50,369 bases of DNA from a virus (taxonomy: Duplodnaviria; Caudoviricetes): the IMG/VR virus record IMGVR_UViG_3300031576_000066, positions 1-50,369 of that record. One strand, written 5' to 3'. Of this stretch, positions 8,219-15,358 are shown one piece after another. Under the pieces are notes generated by a model. That model searched no databases. It was not told the origin of the DNA and was given only the letters and a program-made list of their open reading frames with translations. A program made the translations under genes and the position numbers. Every line of letters starts with the position of its first letter. Positions within the stretch are counted from its first letter, which is position 1.

Positions 8219-8930
8219 CCCGAACGAAAAGAAAGACCCGGCCGATCCGAAGCCTGGCGATCCACCCGCTAAGAAACCGCCTCAATCCCCAACGGCAGGG
8301 GACCCAGACGCCGGTAAACCCGAGGCGACTTTCACGCAGGCGGATCTGGACCGCATCGCTGGCACCGCGCGCAAAGACGGCAAGAGCGCCGAGCGCGCTG
8401 CGCTTTTGCAGGCTCTGGGCGTAGACAGCCTTGAGGCCGCACAAGTCGCCATCAAGGCCGCAGACGATGCCAAGCGTGCGCAGATGTCCGAATCTGAAAG
8501 GCTCAAGACAGACAAAGAGGCCGCGGAAAAACGGGCCACAGACGCGGAAGCCGCCCGCCAGCGCTCTGACGCCGAACGGCTACAGGCGCTGATGGAGTCG
8601 GAGATCGTCTCTCTGGCTTCGTCCGATCAAGAGTGGGGCCGCTTCGCCAATCCCAAGGCCGTTGTCAAGCTGATCGAAACCAAAGCGATCAAGTTTGAGG
8701 ATGGGCAGTGGGTTGGAGTCGAGGCCGCCCTCAAAAATCTCGCCGAGAAAGAGACATGGACGCTCGCCCCGAAGGGCGGAGGCACTCAGACCAACATCGG
8801 AATCACCAACGGCAAGAAGACAGTCGGTGCCCGCACCGACGATGACCGCCGCGCTGAGTATTTTGGCGGCGGCAAACGCCGGACATTCTTTGAGCCATCC
8901 CCGGATGGCGTTCGTGGTCGAGAAAAGTAA
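8202..8930 (+). CDS. capsid scaffolding protein
   Basis: Pro/Asp-rich N-terminus, TFTQADLDRI motif and coiled coil; directly before the major capsid gene. Confidence 0.8.
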   Translation: MADATDPNEKKDPADPKPGDPPAKKPPQSPTAGDPDAGKPEATFTQADLDRIAGTARKDGKSAERAALLQALGVDSLEAAQVAIKAADDAKRAQMSESERLKTDKEAAEKRATDAEAARQRSDAERLQALMESEIVSLASSDQEWGRFANPKAVVKLIETKAIKFEDGQWVGVEAALKNLAEKETWTLAPKGGGTQTNIGITNGKKTVGARTDDDRRAEYFGGGKRRTFFEPSPDGVRGREK

Positions 8931-8948
8931 CCGACCGTAATCCCCGCT

Positions 8949-8971
8949 CCTTTGCGCCACAGGCGCAAAGG
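8949..8971 (+). promoter_or_regulatory. hairpin upstream of the major capsid RBS
   Basis: CCTTTGCGCC-ACA-GGCGCAAAGG perfect 10-bp stem, no U-tract, followed by AAGGAGGT. Confidence 0.5.
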
Positions 8972-8996
8972 TCAGGAGATAAGGAGGTAAGACCCA

Positions 8997-9845
8997 ATGG
9001 CTATTACCACTGTCGCCAGCCTCAACAGCCTCTTCAATCTGATCTACGAAGACGCGCTGTTTGTGGCTCGCGAAACCAACCTGATGACGGCCTTGGTGCG
9101 GAACTTCAGCGCCAAGGGCTGGATGGCGCGCAAGCTGTCCATCCGCCCGCAGATCACGGCTCAGGCTAAGGCGGAGGGCATTGACTTCGCCAACCCCACC
9201 ACGTTTGGCTTGACCGAGAAAGCCACGCTCACGCCCGCAACGATCATGGCGCAAGTCCTGCTCACAGATGAGGACGTGGATACCGATCCCAATGCCGCCG
9301 TGCAGGACGCCTCTCAGGAACTCGGTGGCTCCATCGCCACCAAGATCGACAAAGACTTGGTAGGGGACTTCACCAGCTTCACCACGGACGTGGGTCCGGG
9401 CGCCGCACAGACCGCCACGATTGCGAAAGCCGCCAAGGGTGTGAGCGTGCTCCGCAACTCGCTGGCGCCGAACCCGCTCTACGTGGTTTGGCATCCCTAC
9501 CACTGGCACGACCTCTGGGTTGAGCTGGGCCAGCCAGCGGCGAACTTTGCCCTGCTGGGTGACATCGCCAACCAGGCGCTCAAAGATTTCTTCGTAGGTG
9601 TCTGGATCAACATCCAGCACTTCACGAGCGCCAACATCATCCCCGATGCCGGCGATGATGCCGTTTCCGGCATCTTCAACACCAACGCTCTGGGATTCGA
9701 CTCCCGCAAGGCTCCCACGATGGAAGATGAGCGCGATGCTTCCCGCCTGGCGACCGAGTTGAACATGAGCGCGGGTTATGCGCACGGCGTTCTTCGCACT
9801 GAGTTTGGTGTGAAGTACACCGCCGACGCCGCGACACCCACGTAA
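8997..9845 (+). CDS. major capsid protein (HK97 fold)
   Basis: AAGGAGGT RBS; ELGGSIATKIDKDL spine helix; VVWHPYHW; follows the scaffold. Confidence 0.85.
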   Translation: MAITTVASLNSLFNLIYEDALFVARETNLMTALVRNFSAKGWMARKLSIRPQITAQAKAEGIDFANPTTFGLTEKATLTPATIMAQVLLTDEDVDTDPNAAVQDASQELGGSIATKIDKDLVGDFTSFTTDVGPGAAQTATIAKAAKGVSVLRNSLAPNPLYVVWHPYHWHDLWVELGQPAANFALLGDIANQALKDFFVGVWINIQHFTSANIIPDAGDDAVSGIFNTNALGFDSRKAPTMEDERDASRLATELNMSAGYAHGVLRTEFGVKYTADAATPT

Positions 9846-9876
9846 GCAAGGGCTGACACCCAAAGGAGAAATTGAC

Positions 9877-10284
9877 ATGAGCGTTTTGAGTGGACGCCCC
9901 TTCCCGATAGCGATCCAGATCACCGACCCCGGCGCGGACATGCGCATCCCGCTTTTGCGCGTGCCTACAGGACACACCTACACGGTTGAGCGTTGCGACA
10001 TCGTTCCTGATACGACCGCCGCCGCCTCCACTGCCAACTATTGGGAGGCCGCGTTGGAAAACGCCGGCGTCTCAGGCACGGCGCAAGCCGTGATCAGCGG
10101 AACGGCAGGCGGCACGGCAGGCTGGGTGCTCAACACGCCGCAGAATGTCACCATCACCGCAGGCTCTGGCGACCTGACCGAAGGGCAGTACCTGAACCTC
10201 AAGTACAACGAGGAAGGCACCATCGCCCCAGGCCGTTTCACCGTGTTCCTTGAGGTCGTGGACGGCATCGGTTCCAAGGCGTAA
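9877..10284 (+). CDS. putative capsid decoration/cement protein
   Basis: AAGGAG RBS; small beta-rich protein directly after the major capsid gene. Confidence 0.5.
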   Translation: MSVLSGRPFPIAIQITDPGADMRIPLLRVPTGHTYTVERCDIVPDTTAAASTANYWEAALENAGVSGTAQAVISGTAGGTAGWVLNTPQNVTITAGSGDLTEGQYLNLKYNEEGTIAPGRFTVFLEVVDGIGSKA

Positions 10285-10318
10285 GAGAGCTGGTACAGGC
10301 TCAAGCCTGATAGACAGC

Positions 10319-10428
10319 AGGGCGGGGGTGAACCCCGAACGGGCAATGCTGCGCGACTCCCGGCGCGCACGCATCCCCCGCCCTTCAAACACCAAAGCCG
10401 GGAGAGCCACCGGGAGGGGCTTCAGGCA
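10319..10428 (+). promoter_or_regulatory. structured 5' leader (three-way junction with possible pseudoknot over the RBS)
   Basis: AGGGCGGGGG/CCCCCGCCCT stem; loop CTCCCGG is complementary to two downstream CCGGGAG copies. Confidence 0.5.
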
Positions 10429-11610
10429 ATGCGTATCCTACTTTACTCAAATCCGATCTGGGGGAAAACAGGTTATAGCTCAGCAGCTAAACACCTGCTC
10501 ACGCACCTTAACAACTTAGGTCACGAAGTGGCTATGTTCGTCAACTACGGACTCAAGGGTGGCGCTATCAGTGCCGATGGAATGGTGTTTTACCCGACCT
10601 ACATTGATGTCTGGGGAAACGACCTCATGCAGGCCCACGCCAATGACTTCCGCGCCGATCTGATCATCACGATCTATGACGCCTGGCCGCTCAAGTTCGA
10701 GAAGTTCACCACGCCCACCGCGGCCTGGGCGCCGATTGACCACCAGCCGGCGCCTGACGATGTGCTCAAGGCTCTGACGCACGCCAACTGGCCGATCTCG
10801 TTCAGCGAGTTTGGGCAGGGCGAACTTGTGAAAGCCGGCCTGAAGGATGCACGCTTCATCCCGCTAGGCGTGGATTGTGAAGTCTACAAGCCTCTCCCGC
10901 AGGCAGAAGCTCGCGACCGGCTGGGACTGCCTCAAGGCAAATTCATCGTGGGAATGGTGGGGACCAACGTCACCTACCCCACGCGCAAGTGCATCCCGCA
11001 AGTGCTGGCGGCCTTCCAGCGTTTCAACGAGTGCTACCCGGACTCTCTGCTCTATCTGCACACCGAGGAAACAGGGCAACAGGGCAAGGGCATCAAAGTA
11101 TCGTCACTGCTCAATAACCTGAACCTTGGGCCGGATAAGGTAAGGCTCTGTGACCAGTATCACAACGCGATTGGCTTTCCAGAGTCGTACATGGTGGACG
11201 TTTACAACGCCATTGACCTGCTCGCACAGCCCAGCATGTCGGAGGGCTTCGGCCTTCCGATTATCGAAGCGCAAGCCTGCGGCACGCTCGTGCTCACCAA
11301 TGATTGCACCTCCATGACCGAACTATTGGCCGGTGGCTGGCTCATCACAGATTACGAGCGCTGGTGGTCCCAGCAAATGGCCTGGCAGGTCATCCCGCAC
11401 GAGAAAGCCATCATCGAGGCCTTCGAGGACGCCTACCGGTTGAAGCACGGCCATGAGCGCGAACCGGACGGCGGCGAATGGACCAAGCGTAAGACGACCG
11501 CACGGCAGTACACGGTTGCCGGCTACGACTTCAAGACGCAGATCGCGCCCAGGTGGACTCAATTTCTGACAGAGATTGAGCCGGAGTTAGCCATCCCTGT
11601 AAAGGCGTAG
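10429..11610 (+). CDS. glycosyltransferase family 4 (GT-B)
   Basis: EGFGLPIIEAQACG (E-x7-E) motif, RK motif, IPLGVD. Confidence 0.92.
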   Translation: MRILLYSNPIWGKTGYSSAAKHLLTHLNNLGHEVAMFVNYGLKGGAISADGMVFYPTYIDVWGNDLMQAHANDFRADLIITIYDAWPLKFEKFTTPTAAWAPIDHQPAPDDVLKALTHANWPISFSEFGQGELVKAGLKDARFIPLGVDCEVYKPLPQAEARDRLGLPQGKFIVGMVGTNVTYPTRKCIPQVLAAFQRFNECYPDSLLYLHTEETGQQGKGIKVSSLLNNLNLGPDKVRLCDQYHNAIGFPESYMVDVYNAIDLLAQPSMSEGFGLPIIEAQACGTLVLTNDCTSMTELLAGGWLITDYERWWSQQMAWQVIPHEKAIIEAFEDAYRLKHGHEREPDGGEWTKRKTTARQYTVAGYDFKTQIAPRWTQFLTEIEPELAIPVKA

Positions 11611-11613
11611 GAC

Positions 11614-12345
11614 ATGCCCACCGAGTTTGAAACACTGCGCGCCCAGGCCGTAGACGGCACACACCTGCCGCTCTCAAAGAACCTGCTTGAGTCATTCCCG
11701 CGCCTGGTGGCCAATCCAGGCATAAGCCCGCGCACAGACCTGCATTACCAGGACTATGACTTACGCGGTGCCATCGCCTGCACCGCCGCTGAGGCCAACA
11801 TTCTCGACCACCTGGCCTTTTACGCTGGTCCGAAGTATGCGGTTGAAATCGGCTCGGCGACCGGCTGGAGCACAGCGCACATCGCGCAATCGTGCAACCT
11901 GGTCTGTATCGACCCGTTCACCGAGGTGAAGCCGCGGATTGACGGACTCAACCCAGCCATGCGCTTTTGGGAAAACATCGAGGCCTGCGGGCTGGATAAC
12001 AAGGTGGAGCTAATCAGACTCCCATCCCCTGAAGCGCTCGACCACCTGAGCGACCAGGTTGATTTTGCCTTCGTGGACGGACATCACGGAGATGGGCAGC
12101 CGCTCAGAGATGCACAGGGGTTGCTCCATCACCTGACCGATCATGCTCTGGTGGTCTGGCACGACTCTGAGCTAAGGGATGTTAGGGAGGCCATCACCTT
12201 CATGCAACGCGATGGATGGGTTTCGCGCGGACTCCTTACTTCCAATTGGCTGGTCGTCATGTGGCGCAGGGGCAGACAACCGGACTGGTGGGAGATGGTC
12301 GTAAAACTCGTGAACGGCAAGGGCCTCTTGATGGAGGCTCCATGA
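11614..12345 (+). CDS. class I SAM methyltransferase (Methyltransf_24-like)
   Basis: VEIGSATGWST, CIDPF, DFAFVDGHH, VVWHD. Confidence 0.85.
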   Translation: MPTEFETLRAQAVDGTHLPLSKNLLESFPRLVANPGISPRTDLHYQDYDLRGAIACTAAEANILDHLAFYAGPKYAVEIGSATGWSTAHIAQSCNLVCIDPFTEVKPRIDGLNPAMRFWENIEACGLDNKVELIRLPSPEALDHLSDQVDFAFVDGHHGDGQPLRDAQGLLHHLTDHALVVWHDSELRDVREAITFMQRDGWVSRGLLTSNWLVVMWRRGRQPDWWEMVVKLVNGKGLLMEAP

Positions 12346-13028
12346 AGATCGTCGCCTGCATCACCACACGCAACGAGGCGCGCTCAATTGGCTTGCTGGT
12401 GGGAAAGCTGATCGCTGGCGACTTTGACGCCGTGCTCGTCGTTGACGACGCCAGCACCGACGGCACCGCCGAGATAGCGAAGAACGATGGGGCGATGGTA
12501 TTCAATAACAAGCGGCGGCTGGGCATGGCGGCAAGCATCCTGCTTGGCTGGCGTTTGGCGCTATCGCTGGATGCTGGACTCGTTTTGCAGATTGACGCGG
12601 GCGGTTCGCACAACCCGGTGGACGCCTGGAAGTTTATCTCGCCCGGCTTCGCCCAGCCTGCCGATCTGGTCATCGGCTCGCGCTTTTGCAAGGGGGCGCG
12701 GTACGTGGGTCGGTCTTGGCGGGCAGTGATGAGCAGGGCGGCGGCGGTCGCCTGCAATTTGGCCCAGCCTGGCGCGCGCTGGTCAGACTGGACATCGGGA
12801 TACCGGGCCTACTCCGCGCTGGCATTACGGGTATTGACGGAGAGGGCCTACCGGAGTCGGATGCACGGCTTCCAGATTGAGACGCTGGCGAGGGCAGGCG
12901 CGGCGGGCTTGAGCATCACAGAAGTGCCCATCACCTACACCGCCGGCGAGTCGGCCTTCAACAGTCAGATCGCCGCCGAGTGTTTTAGAGCCTGGTGGGA
13001 TGTGATGCGCGCCAGACTGGAAAGATAA
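12342..13028 (+). CDS. glycosyltransferase family 2 (polyprenol-phosphate mannose synthase-like)
   Basis: T.NEA, VVDDASTDGT, QIDAGGSH, DLVIGSRF, DWTSGYRAY. Confidence 0.9.
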   Translation: MKIVACITTRNEARSIGLLVGKLIAGDFDAVLVVDDASTDGTAEIAKNDGAMVFNNKRRLGMAASILLGWRLALSLDAGLVLQIDAGGSHNPVDAWKFISPGFAQPADLVIGSRFCKGARYVGRSWRAVMSRAAAVACNLAQPGARWSDWTSGYRAYSALALRVLTERAYRSRMHGFQIETLARAGAAGLSITEVPITYTAGESAFNSQIAAECFRAWWDVMRARLER

Positions 13029-13032
13029 CGAG

Positions 13033-13752
13033 ATGAGGATCGCGCTTGGCTCAATCTTCCGCAATTCAACCGGCTCACTGGAGCGCTATTTCAGGCAGGT
13101 CGAAGCGTTGGCGGTGCAACTGAGAAGCCGGGGCGACACGCTCAGGCTGATTCTGGCCGAGGGGGACAGCATAGACGGCACGTATGACGAACTGCATTAC
13201 CACCTGGACTCGCGGGAGGGAGCGATCAACATGCACGACAGCAAGTTGATCCAGGTCAACCACGGCGGGCCGGTCTTTGGCAGTGTGAACGATGAGCAGA
13301 GGTGGCGGAACATCTCCAAGGTCTGCAACGACCTGCTCGATCTGGTGACGCCGCAGGATGACATCCTGATCTATGTGGAGAGTGACCTGATCTGGCAGCC
13401 CGTCAGCATGACGGCCCTGATCGACTTGGCCGAACTCTCGCGCTTCGATGTCGTCGTTCCCATGTGCCTGGCAGAGGGCACTGACCGCTTCTATGACATC
13501 TGGGGACACCGGCGCAGGGGTCTGGGCTTCCGGCCAGAACCGCCCTATCACCCGGACCTTGAGTTGCACAGGGGATACACGGCCCTGGGGATGGATAGCG
13601 CGGGCAGTTGCTTGGTGATGAAAGGGCACGTCGCGCTCAACACGCGCTTTGACCCGCCCGAGCACGGCATTGTGGGCTGGTGTGAGGACATCCGCCGCAA
13701 GGGTTACAGCATCTGGCTCCAGCCAGCGGTGAAGGTCGAGCACCCGATATAG
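13033..13752 (+). CDS. GT-A fold glycosyltransferase (Anp1/GT2-like)
   Basis: EGDSIDGT, YVESDL, FYDIWG, DSAGSCLVM and C-terminal V.H. Confidence 0.7.
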   Translation: MRIALGSIFRNSTGSLERYFRQVEALAVQLRSRGDTLRLILAEGDSIDGTYDELHYHLDSREGAINMHDSKLIQVNHGGPVFGSVNDEQRWRNISKVCNDLLDLVTPQDDILIYVESDLIWQPVSMTALIDLAELSRFDVVVPMCLAEGTDRFYDIWGHRRRGLGFRPEPPYHPDLELHRGYTALGMDSAGSCLVMKGHVALNTRFDPPEHGIVGWCEDIRRKGYSIWLQPAVKVEHPI

Positions 13753-13967: not shown

Positions 13968-14546
13968 ATGGCGATTCATTGGTATCTGCTCCCGTTCGAT
14001 AGTGCCACCAGCTCTCCCAAGCATCTGGAGCCGCCGGAGAATGGCGACCGCTGGGATAGCAAGCGTTATTTTCACGGCGACGCGGCCAGCTATGTGGCGC
14101 TGGTCAAAGCGGACATCAGCGATGTGCGCCACGCGCTGATTGCGGCGGATGTAGAGTGTGTGGTGCTTCCCGACCCGGATACCACCGTTCTGCCGGGTCA
14201 ACTCACAGTCATTCAAAACGTTCTCGAAGCACGGCATATACCGTCCGGCTGGGTCGCGGCGGGAATGACATTCCGACAAGTCTATCGGCGGGTTGCGTTG
14301 ATGGGTATCCTGTGGATGCGCTTTCGTGGCCGCACGCTGGGAGCTAATGTTTTTGGCGGCGGGGTGACGCTGGAGACGGCTGTCGCCAGCTTGCCAGTCA
14401 ATGTGCGCCAATCGTTAGCCGACATCGCGGATGAGTTTCAGATCGACCGCGCCGGCGTGGTGACGGTACGCGATGCGCTCGCGGCCTGGTATCAGTCGCC
14501 GGTCATTCAGGCTATGCCGATCATGATCTTGGGGGAGAGTCTGTAA
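13968..14546 (+). CDS. hypothetical protein (accessory structural block)
   Basis: ORF track; TAATG coupling to the next gene. Confidence 0.6.
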   Translation: MAIHWYLLPFDSATSSPKHLEPPENGDRWDSKRYFHGDAASYVALVKADISDVRHALIAADVECVVLPDPDTTVLPGQLTVIQNVLEARHIPSGWVAAGMTFRQVYRRVALMGILWMRFRGRTLGANVFGGGVTLETAVASLPVNVRQSLADIADEFQIDRAGVVTVRDALAAWYQSPVIQAMPIMILGESL

Positions 14547-15358
14547 TGCCCTTCCCAACGCTCGGAATCCTGGACGCCTTCACCCGCGCCGATCAAGACC
14601 CGGATACCGGAGCGTTGTGGGGCGGCGGGGTTGAAACAGCGGGCATCGGGCATCGTATCCTGAGCAATCAGGCGGCGCGCACGGCGGGATCGAATTTCGG
14701 TTCACGGACGGCCTCGATCTATGGCCCGAATTGCGAAGCCTACGTTTCTATTCCCACGTTTCCAGTTCTCACCGGCGATCTCGTTCGCCTTGTTTGCAGA
14801 ACGCAGGAGGTGGGCGGATTCAATTGGGATGGCTATGAGGCGCATATCGATGTGAATACGGCCGGCAATGAAACGCTCCGCATCCGGGAAGTTCTTAATC
14901 AGGCTCCCACCACGCTCGCCAGTGATACCACGCGCAACATGGCTTCTGGCGATAAGCTGGGCTTTGAATGTATTGGCACGGCTTTGAAGCTCTATAACGT
15001 CGAGGGCGGCGGGGCCTGGACAGAGCGGGTCAGTACGACCGATGCGACTTACTCTGTTGCAAACTATATGGGGATGATCCTCGTCGAAGCAGTGGCGACC
15101 GCCCGCCTGGACGACTTTGGCGGCGGTGAGCTGTCGCCCACCTATGAGCAGGAAGGCTACCGTTTTCGGAATGACGACGGCAATGAAAGCGCGGCCACCT
15201 GGCTGGCGGCGCAAGATACAAACATTACTCGCGCGGCTTTGATCAACACGCGACTGCGAACGTTGACCGATACGGCGGGCGGCGATCCGCCGTCACGACG
15301 GCTCAAACAGAAGTATCGCAGAGCGGGCGATGACGGCTGGCGCGATCTAAAGGCATAG
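14546..15358 (+). CDS. putative virion protein, concanavalin/lectin-like beta-sandwich
   Basis: DAFTRAD N-terminus, beta-strand pattern ending in ARLDDFGGG. Confidence 0.5.
   Translation: MPFPTLGILDAFTRADQDPDTGALWGGGVETAGIGHRILSNQAARTAGSNFGSRTASIYGPNCEAYVSIPTFPVLTGDLVRLVCRTQEVGGFNWDGYEAHIDVNTAGNETLRIREVLNQAPTTLASDTTRNMASGDKLGFECIGTALKLYNVEGGGAWTERVSTTDATYSVANYMGMILVEAVATARLDDFGGGELSPTYEQEGYRFRNDDGNESAATWLAAQDTNITRAALINTRLRTLTDTAGGDPPSRRLKQKYRRAGDDGWRDLKA

Follow-up and report, generated by a model that had tools for sequence, protein, structure and literature searches.

A diverged form of the int-alpA RNA motif, and putative translation switch, in the leader of a phage glycosyltransferase gene

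Concealment of the Shine-Dalgarno sequence in a pseudoknot is a common design of translational riboswitches, as in the preQ1-II and the S-adenosylmethionine SAM-II/SAM-V classes, and a ligand pocket is expected at a junction. Translational coupling through RNA structure is known from the long-range pairings of RNA-phage coat/replicase or lysis genes and from the termination upstream ribosome-binding site (TURBS) of caliciviruses, and stem-loops are found after phage major structural genes, the terminator stem-loop after the T7 capsid gene being an example. Here we analyse an element located in the 144-nucleotide (nt) gap between the open reading frame (ORF) 9877-10284 and the co-oriented gene of a GT1-family glycosyltransferase (GT; ATG at 10429) in IMGVR_UViG_3300031576_000066 (Duplodnaviria; Caudoviricetes), a complete virus record of 50,369 base pairs (bp) which we call the window. 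This leader element appears to be a diverged form of int-alpA, an orphan RNA motif already known, rather than a new class, and we propose, with a probability of about 0.5, that it acts in cis as a translation switch or attenuator of the GT gene.

The int-alpA motif is Rfam family RF02996 and derives from Weinberg et al. (2017, NAR 45:10811), in whose main text the name int-alpA is absent. The literature searched holds no functional study of it; the supplement of the 2017 paper, which possibly already shows a pseudoknot or a cis-regulatory role, lies outside that search. In other papers, int-alpA is mentioned in a gene order and as an Rfam family name listed among predicted small RNAs (sRNAs).

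Fold and family of the leader element

The element is made of the following parts, given in 5' to 3' order.

10289..10318, plus strand: P0, an extra hairpin between the stop codon and P1, abutting P1; present in the minimum-free-energy (MFE) fold of the 156-nt leader
10319-10328, plus strand: 5' strand of P1, AGGGCGGGGG, paired with 10375-10384
10334..10343, plus strand: predicted P2, made of CCC (10334-36), the loop GAAC and GGG (10341-43); present in the MFE fold
10346..10374, plus strand: P3 hairpin of 10 bp, ATGCTGCGCG (10346-55) paired with CGCGCA-(bulged C, 10370)-GCAT (10364-74)
10356-63, plus strand: P3 loop of 8 nt, ACTCCCGG (in RNA ACUCCCGG), resembling an anti-Shine-Dalgarno sequence; L104, a bona fide member of the family, carries exactly this loop
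10375-10384, plus strand: 3' strand of P1, CCCCCGCCCT, paired with 10319-10328
10385..10396, plus strand: linker TCAAACACCAAA, read from the sequence, with no G and no U run
10397..10404, plus strand: site 1, GCCGGGAG, putative pseudoknot or decoy partner, 8 bp to the loop plus its closing C
10404..10422, plus strand: P4 hairpin, GAGCC (10404-08) paired with GGCUU (10418-22; GGCTT in DNA), 9-nt loop ACCGGGAGG
10410..10417, plus strand: site 2, CCGGGAG (10410-16), in the P4 loop and overlapping the Shine-Dalgarno sequence GGGAGG (10412-17)

All pairings that a sequence-only reading of this DNA had proposed exist where it had placed them. Indeed, the RNAfold MFE structure of the 66-nt core (10319-10384) is exactly the P1/P2/P3 three-way junction at -39.1 kcal/mol (z -3.16, with 1 of 200 dinucleotide shuffles as stable), and the 156-nt leader has a z-score of -2.11, with 4 of 200 shuffles as stable. 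The same reading had seen the P3 loop as complementary both to 10397-404 and to CCGGGAG at 10410-16, the second site overlapping the ribosome-binding site inside the loop of the GAGCC/GGCTT hairpin; both complementarities and the overlap were found in the sequence, and P4 recurs in relatives with different stem sequences. The loop stretch CUCCCGGC pairs with site 1, GCCGGGAG, over 8 bp and 12 nt past P1, at -14.0 kcal/mol (-17.4 counting the loop-closing G-C pair), and the duplex with site 2, which lies together with the Shine-Dalgarno sequence 11 nt 5' of the ATG, is nearly isoenergetic at -14.8 kcal/mol. These near-equal energies match what a two-state element would need.

The P2 of the window has 3 bp and no comparative support. 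The CCGAAC that it includes may instead be a remnant of the 3' strand of the int-alpA P2 together with the J2/3 junction; Microcystis phage Mae-JY09 and the related locus L042 (fetched loci are labelled L with a number) carry GCCGAAC at this P2-3'/J2/3 position in RF02996 alignments, which only CGAAC (10336-40) recalls in the window. An alternative, int-alpA-like fold, with a 7-bp P1, a P2 of GGG-UGAA-CCC and a GGG/CCC base of P3, is 5 kcal/mol weaker (-34.1). By eye, and with no statistics attached, a P0-like hairpin stands at the same place in the relative L003 and a possible one in L083.

The G+C content of the leader region is 78%, and GC-rich sequence folds readily, so that chance complementarity has to be weighed as an explanation of these pairings. 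The heptamer CCGGGAG occurs eight times on the two strands of the window (10.3 expected), and three of these eight copies fall inside 10357-10416, namely the loop (minus strand) and sites 1 and 2 (plus strand). This clustering within 60 nt, the z-score of the core, and above all the preservation of the layout by compensatory changes in L003, L083 and dozens of more distant relatives make chance an extremely improbable explanation. The window was also scanned for further modules of a hairpin loop plus two complements, with a contiguous 7-bp stem required, a rule by which the bulged window element is itself missed; the plus strand held none, and the few matches on the minus strand, inside ORFs, are probably due to chance.

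The element had been taken for a new RNA. Rfam finds no match in the whole window at gathering score (35.8 bits for RF02996), and the match that was lacking in the window was found at the syntenic spot in relatives, which carry bona fide RF02996 members there, so the claim of novelty falls. Eighty viral loci encoding homologues of the GT were found by an alignment-based search, a single-protein search for loci in viral contigs having returned none, and by eye a conserved structure stands directly 5' of the GT gene in most of them. RF02996 exceeds its gathering score in 6 of the 20 related loci scanned; the scores at syntenic elements are 46.7 bits (L040), 42.9 (L027), 42.2 (L043 and L064), 38.6 (L036) and 37.8 (L042 and Mae-JY09), and when whole phage records were searched, 4 of 5 contained a single copy.

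MAFFT alignments of the motif (A2 and A3) were rejected, gaps being misplaced in P2 and P3 and RNAalifold recovering P1 only. For this reason, a covariance model, R1, was seeded from four sequences of equal length, and a second, R2, was built from the 39 matches of R1 in related loci. R2 matches the plus strand of 48 of the 80 viral GT loci, the sole minus-strand match being weak (E 3.3), as well as 13 of 80 metagenome loci.

Compared with these members, the window keeps the long P1, the C-rich P3 loop, site 1, and site 2 within P4, all of which covary across relatives. Site 1 corresponds to the AgGG tail at the 3' end of the RF02996 model, and the genomic setting is that of the family: coding strand, between co-oriented genes and syntenic with the RF02996 match of Mae-JY09. 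The family has the junction consensus J1/2 UAG, J2/3 GA(A/C)AA(G) and J3/1 (C)U; the window has UGAAC where the family has the J1/2 UAG, and no J3/1. Its MFE fold is a three-way junction, with a P3 of 10 bp against 4-7 bp in the family, the 3-bp P2 already described, and an R2 alignment that covers P1 only.

Several results weigh against assigning the window copy to int-alpA. At 10200-10500, with E up to 10, Rfam returns neither RF02996 nor any riboswitch family, and R2, run on the window with filters off, scores 12.5 bits, on P1 only, next to 11.0 bits on the opposite strand. With both models failing, homology rests on synteny, on the shared layout and on the intermediate L003.

Indeed, the closest relatives form a gradient. 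L003 (GT 55% identical) gives a weak full-length R2 alignment of 16.9 bits, with AAGG instead of UAGG, the window is branched without the junction signature, and L083 (GT 50% identical) forms a plain hairpin of 11 bp. All three keep the loop, the two sites and P4, and differ in the sequences of P1, P4 and the loop: L003 has the loop AUCCCGG, the sites CCGGGAU and CCGGGAA and a P4 of UGUCAG/CUGACA, and L083 has the loop UCUCCCGGA, the sites UCCGGGAGA and UCCGGGAGG and a P4 of GCCCU/GGGGC. An equivalent of P4 is thus present in 3 of 3 members of this subgroup (0.3 expected). In a quick tree of the GT, limited to 61 rows that are a chosen subset of the fetched loci with translations of at least 300 amino acids (aa) and that leave many loci out, the window groups with L003 and L083 in one clade (support 97) beside the hairpin-only L061 and L020; with midpoint rooting, the window lineage and two motif-rich lineages form an unresolved three-way fork. 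Because L003 retains a residual full-length match to R2, it seems likelier that the window form is a degenerate int-alpA than that it is an older, simpler form.

At the same head-gene/GT junction, L038 and L019 (upstream of 2501) carry a long hairpin, the loop of which complements the Shine-Dalgarno sequence only, over 9 nt in L038 (CCCUCCCCU with AGGGGAGGG), and neither has a decoy site.

Covariation of the loop with two sites and the translation-switch reading

On the R2 alignment, 94.2% of the cells in P1-P3 are paired, against 64.2% after shuffling and at most 48% after sliding, two-sided changes occur in 16 of 19 pairs, and G-U pairs are oriented as for an RNA of the coding strand; the alignment was fitted to the model, which biases these pairing statistics towards the structure. 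The Rfam model stops at site 1 and leaves P4, site 2 and the start codon outside RF02996. In relatives, a second copy of the site is found near the start codon; a hairpin of 4-7 bp equivalent to P4, with freely varying stems (UUGUG/CACAG, GUGAC/GUCAC, CAAGC/GCUUG, GACCU/AGGUC), usually carries it in its loop. A loose criterion recovers P4 in 22 of 27 dereplicated instances, where shuffled tails would give 10.3, and a start codon lies 3' of P4 in every context examined.

The loop and the sites change together, as in GCUCC/GGAGC, ACUCCC/GGGAGU, GCCCCC/GGGGGC, GCCUU/AAGGC and CUCCCGG/CCGGGAG. When loops were permuted among the 27 dereplicated instances, 0 of 2000 permutations reached the observed fit of own loop to own site-1 region, and 0 of 2000 that to own site-2 region; in a bacterial set of 17 instances, some with imperfectly parsed loops, the same test gave 0 of 2000 for site 1 and 34 of 2000 for site 2, significances that are all overstated because the tests ignore sequence relatedness. 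The summed loop duplex energies of the 27 instances are close for the two partners, at -301.9 kcal/mol for the site-1 regions and -304.4 kcal/mol for the site-2 regions, and site 2 can match the loop well beyond the Shine-Dalgarno core (9 nt in L006 and L008, 10 nt in L046).

The structured RNA that had been read into the leader of the GT1, methyltransferase and GT2 genes is thus strand-specific and covaries in relatives. The check by homologue covariation that had been suggested for it finds the pairing of P1-P3, of the loop with its sites and of P4 kept by compensatory changes, and the idea of two mutually exclusive partners, one of them the ribosome-binding site, agrees with relatives, in which both sites fit their own loop better than the loops of other instances.

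These patterns suggest the following mechanism. The three-way junction P1-P3 would display the C-rich, anti-Shine-Dalgarno-like loop, which could pair with only one of the two near-identical G-rich sites at a time. Pairing with site 1 would form a pseudoknot and leave the Shine-Dalgarno sequence exposed in the P4 loop, allowing translation; pairing with site 2 would bring two loops into contact, masking the Shine-Dalgarno sequence and shutting translation off. The balance of the two states would set the ratio of GT to the head protein whose gene is just upstream. The formation of either pairing in vivo, an effect of it on translation and the direction of this effect are what we infer from the comparative data. 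Since the loop and its two sites survive degeneration or loss of the junction, they point to RNA-RNA competition at the ribosome-binding site and not to ligand sensing.

Several points weigh against this translation-switch proposal, in addition to the overstated significance of the permutations. Site 2 needs to be G-rich anyway as a Shine-Dalgarno sequence, and in L053-type subfamilies its match to the loop is limited to 3-4 nt. It is also not obvious what a constant balance of two states would gain over a Shine-Dalgarno sequence that is simply weak. The motif of L292, placed after a scaffold gene and before the major head gene, misfits a simple down-tuning of a minor gene, and the plain hairpins found at the same site in the sister lineages L061 and L020 would fit a role in stability or termination too.

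The G-rich sites could also be read as an operator, at which a phage or host RNA-binding protein, bound there or at the junction, would repress or activate initiation. Conserved junction nucleotides combined with two G-rich sites do recall repressor-bound layouts, and presence before many unrelated genes of mobile elements would suit a general factor. The sites vary widely (GGAGC, GGGGGC, AAGGC, CCGGGAG) and nevertheless track the loop, which therefore argues for RNA-RNA and not protein-RNA recognition, and no candidate protein co-occurs in the contexts examined; we consider such an operator improbable.

Gene setting, distribution and other explanations

The element lies downstream of the head genes of the window, in the order scaffold, major head, 135-aa ORF, leader element, GT1, methyltransferase and GT2.

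8997-9845, plus strand: major head protein gene, matching major head families in Pfam and PHROGs, directly before ORF 9877-10284
9877..10284, plus strand: upstream ORF of 135 aa from the ORF list, TAA stop at 10282-84
10429..11610, plus strand: GT1-family glycosyltransferase gene (Pfam Glycos_transf_1, PHROG 2170), presumed controlled cistron
11614-12345, plus strand: methyltransferase (Pfam Methyltransf_24)
12216-13028, plus strand: GT2-family glycosyltransferase ORF (Pfam Glycos_transf_2), start uncertain

The 135-aa ORF has no match in Pfam or PHROGs; small homologous ORFs with similar C-termini sit 5' of the motif in many relatives. The N-terminus of GT1, MRIL, agrees with the consensus of its homologues. 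The listed GT2 ORF overlaps the methyltransferase ORF by 130 nt, and its true start is probably further downstream because its Pfam match begins at residue 48. Past the glycosylation genes come three ORFs in a row (13033-13752, 13968-14546 and 14546-15358), none of them with a Pfam or PHROG match. Neither a sigma-70-like promoter nor a terminator-like site was found in 8900-11700.

No near-identical DNA is present in the phage record collection, and among named phages Mae-JY09 is the nearest; its genes stand in the same order, with identities of 39.7% for the capsid and 35.3% for the GT. A profile search of genome contigs with the GT alignment returned only distant cellular GT1 genes, as partial matches with best-segment identities of 22-59%, and no prophage copies.

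The upstream ORF, the gap 10285-10428 and the GT gene share one reading frame, and the gap contains no stop codon. Such a gap is also seen in L083; because it is absent from L003 and most relatives, it is probably a coincidence in the window. Stop read-through or fusion of the upstream ORF with the GT was rejected as a function of the element in general: of 34 instances, only 8 keep the frame (about 1/3 expected) and two are open throughout. In some loci (L005/L084, L017/L018, L028, L037, L059 and L093) the motif and the GT gene are separated by another ORF (265 aa in L005, 84 aa in L037) or by a longer gap; here the motif keeps its place at the head-gene end instead of following the GT gene.

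The structure usually starts soon after the upstream frame. Among 46 phage instances, in which the frames are unverified as genes, 40 lie at most 17 nt from the end of the upstream long frame; among 31 motif-bearing instances, 26 lie at 4-16 nt, and among 17 bacterial instances, 11 at no more than 13 nt. In the window, 34 nt separate the stop codon from P1 and are filled by P0.

Beyond the GT loci, a pattern written for a single motif subfamily, taking no account of adjacent genes, retrieved 48 viral stretches, in which the next gene is a GT homologue in 29 cases, another gene in 16 and cut off in 3. Among the 10 of these 16 that were examined, the motif stands after a tail gene and before a tail-assembly-chaperone-like gene (L249), after a head-morphogenesis gene and before an HNH endonuclease (L248), between scaffold and major head genes (L292, as mentioned before), or before ORFs with no assigned function that follow tail-terminator and Neck1 genes. 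A second pattern, CTCCCGG plus two CCGGGAG, retrieved 49 distinct stretches in viral contigs. Seven have the full layout, defined as a stem of at least 6 bp at the C-rich word, a start codon at most 16 nt past site 2 and an upstream ORF end within 45 nt; the 42 others, many of them repeats or within coding sequence, fail to combine the three and were set aside. In L312, L316, L327 and L346 (at about 1480-1570), plain hairpins of 13-16 bp directly follow major tail protein genes, with a CUCCCGG loop, two CCGGGAG, a start codon and then a tail-assembly-chaperone-like gene. Their phages were not retrieved by the GT homology searches, and they represent a junction-free form of the same module. Other full-layout stretches precede a DnaD-like loader or a Cas4-like exonuclease, and L341 has, by eye, a canonical int-alpA-like fold. 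In L306 (about 1501-1546), the anti-Shine-Dalgarno word and the first site are the two arms of one 13-bp hairpin (CUCCCGGCCGGCG/CGCCGGCCGGGAG), which the second site and a GTG start follow.

Of 151 genomes sampled from one bacterial class, 12 gave RF02996 matches, and in 11 these exceeded the cut-off, with up to 76 bits and up to 4 copies per genome (L350-L368; genomes G029-G157); five arbitrary bacterial genomes reached through GT-like loci had nothing over the cut-off. The bacterial copies mostly begin 6-13 nt past the upstream stop, all 9 large upstream ORFs that were tested (9/9) are P4-type integrases, and an ORF with no Pfam match follows on the same strand. The layout of site 1, P4, site 2 and start codon is also visible, by eye, in canonical bacterial copies.

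Such positions raise the question of whether the structure belongs to the end of the upstream gene. As a transcript boundary after a highly expressed structural gene, it could be a partial terminator, a processing site or a block to 3'-exonucleases that keeps the head-gene mRNA abundant relative to those of the enzyme genes, the G-rich sites being merely the ribosome-binding region of the next gene. The tight spacing fits this boundary function, as do the frequent location after a major head or, in L312, L316, L327 and L346, a major tail gene, the plain GC-rich hairpins at the same site in L061, L020 and L083, and the U-rich stretch that follows P1 in the RF02996 consensus. We nevertheless find this main rival of the translation switch rather unlikely. 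In the window, no U-run follows P1 (TCAAACACC; UCAAACACC) and the terminator-like sites sought in 8900-11700 were not found; the module also occurs before major head and replication genes and after scaffold, neck and tail-terminator genes; and a boundary would account neither for P4, nor for the junction nucleotides that canonical members conserve, nor for a loop that covaries with two sites 3' of it.

The Rfam type of RF02996, 'Gene; sRNA', would suggest instead a small RNA acting in trans. The structure fits tightly between co-oriented ORFs, always on the coding strand, the flanks in the window show no promoter-like or terminator-like signals, and the partner sequences lie in cis within 50 nt, all of which make a trans-acting small RNA very unlikely.

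A riboswitch, in which the junction would bind a metabolite (SAM, a nucleotide sugar or another one) and thereby choose between site 1 and the Shine-Dalgarno sequence, is what the sequence-only reading had envisaged. The invariant unpaired nucleotides (UAG, GA(A/C)AAG, CU) around a covarying junction in canonical members speak for it, as does the common use of Shine-Dalgarno pseudoknots by translational riboswitches. Because the same layout precedes unrelated genes and junction-free variants exist, a SAM or sugar riboswitch is unlikely. Indeed, the downstream genes encode GT, tail chaperone, HNH, major head, DnaD-like and Cas4-like proteins or are post-integrase ORFs, with no association to the genes of one pathway; the UAG junction is lacking in the window, where R2 cannot align the interior, and in its closest relatives; the loop and two sites persist on plain hairpins in L083, L312, L316, L327 and L346; and no Rfam riboswitch family matches. 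A riboswitch of any kind thus appears doubtful for the motif, and a small-molecule ligand is unlikely for the window copy, for which SAM and nucleotide sugars had been named as candidates.

A further possibility, which we regard as unlikely, is that the int-alpA class as a whole, including the window form and the plain hairpins, is a ligand-independent device for coupling or re-initiation, a counterpart, in bacteria and phages, of the TURBS of eukaryotic viruses. The reason to consider it is the tight spacing to the upstream stop codon (34 nt in the window, with P0 between). A ribosome terminating on the upstream cistron would stop flush against the base of P1 and remodel the fold, the loop would swap between site 2, the true Shine-Dalgarno sequence, and site 1, the decoy, and the next gene would be translated only, or in a fixed proportion, when the upstream gene is translated. 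Such coupling, if true, would give a function to an orphan motif of post-integrase sites and many phage operons.

Comparison with described systems

This analysis indicates that the int-alpA motif or diverged forms of it occur regularly at the head-gene/glycosyltransferase junction of Mae-JY09 and of a large uncultured group of phages. It adds to the described motif a conserved ribosome-binding-site extension (site 2 and P4), present in phage copies and in bacterial integrase-linked copies, and a wider distribution, which together make the function of the orphan motif testable. If the translation-switch proposal is true, the module would be a widespread and compact way for mobile elements to set the translation ratios of neighbouring genes.

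Like the window element, int-alpA is a three-way junction whose P1 is GC-rich and whose C-rich P3 loop complements a G-rich tail on the 3' side; it is located between co-oriented genes of mobile elements. The window differs from it in having no J1/2 UAG, no canonical P2, a P3 about twice as long and a 12-nt linker that is not U-rich, and in its context, after phage head genes, whereas the namesake context of int-alpA is just after P4-type integrase genes.

Translational riboswitches of the preQ1-II and SAM-II/SAM-V type share with the window a hairpin loop that pairs with a G-rich stretch at or near the ribosome-binding site. Unlike them, the window element has two partner sites, its module precedes unrelated genes and exists in junction-free variants, and no Rfam match links it to them.

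The T7-type stem-loops resemble the module in their position right after head or major tail genes and in their strong GC-rich stem. The window element has no U-tract, and it adds to a stem the branched fold, the covarying loop and sites, and P4; the module is also found upstream of a major gene, as in L292.

Finally, the coupling systems of RNA phages and caliciviruses are, like int-alpA, intercistronic and structured, int-alpA usually standing 4-16 nt past the upstream stop codon, and they display sequences complementary to the ribosome. The int-alpA RNAs differ from them in belonging to double-stranded DNA phages and integrative elements and in displaying Shine-Dalgarno-like and anti-Shine-Dalgarno-like sequences, with a stop codon that, in the window, is 34 nt away.

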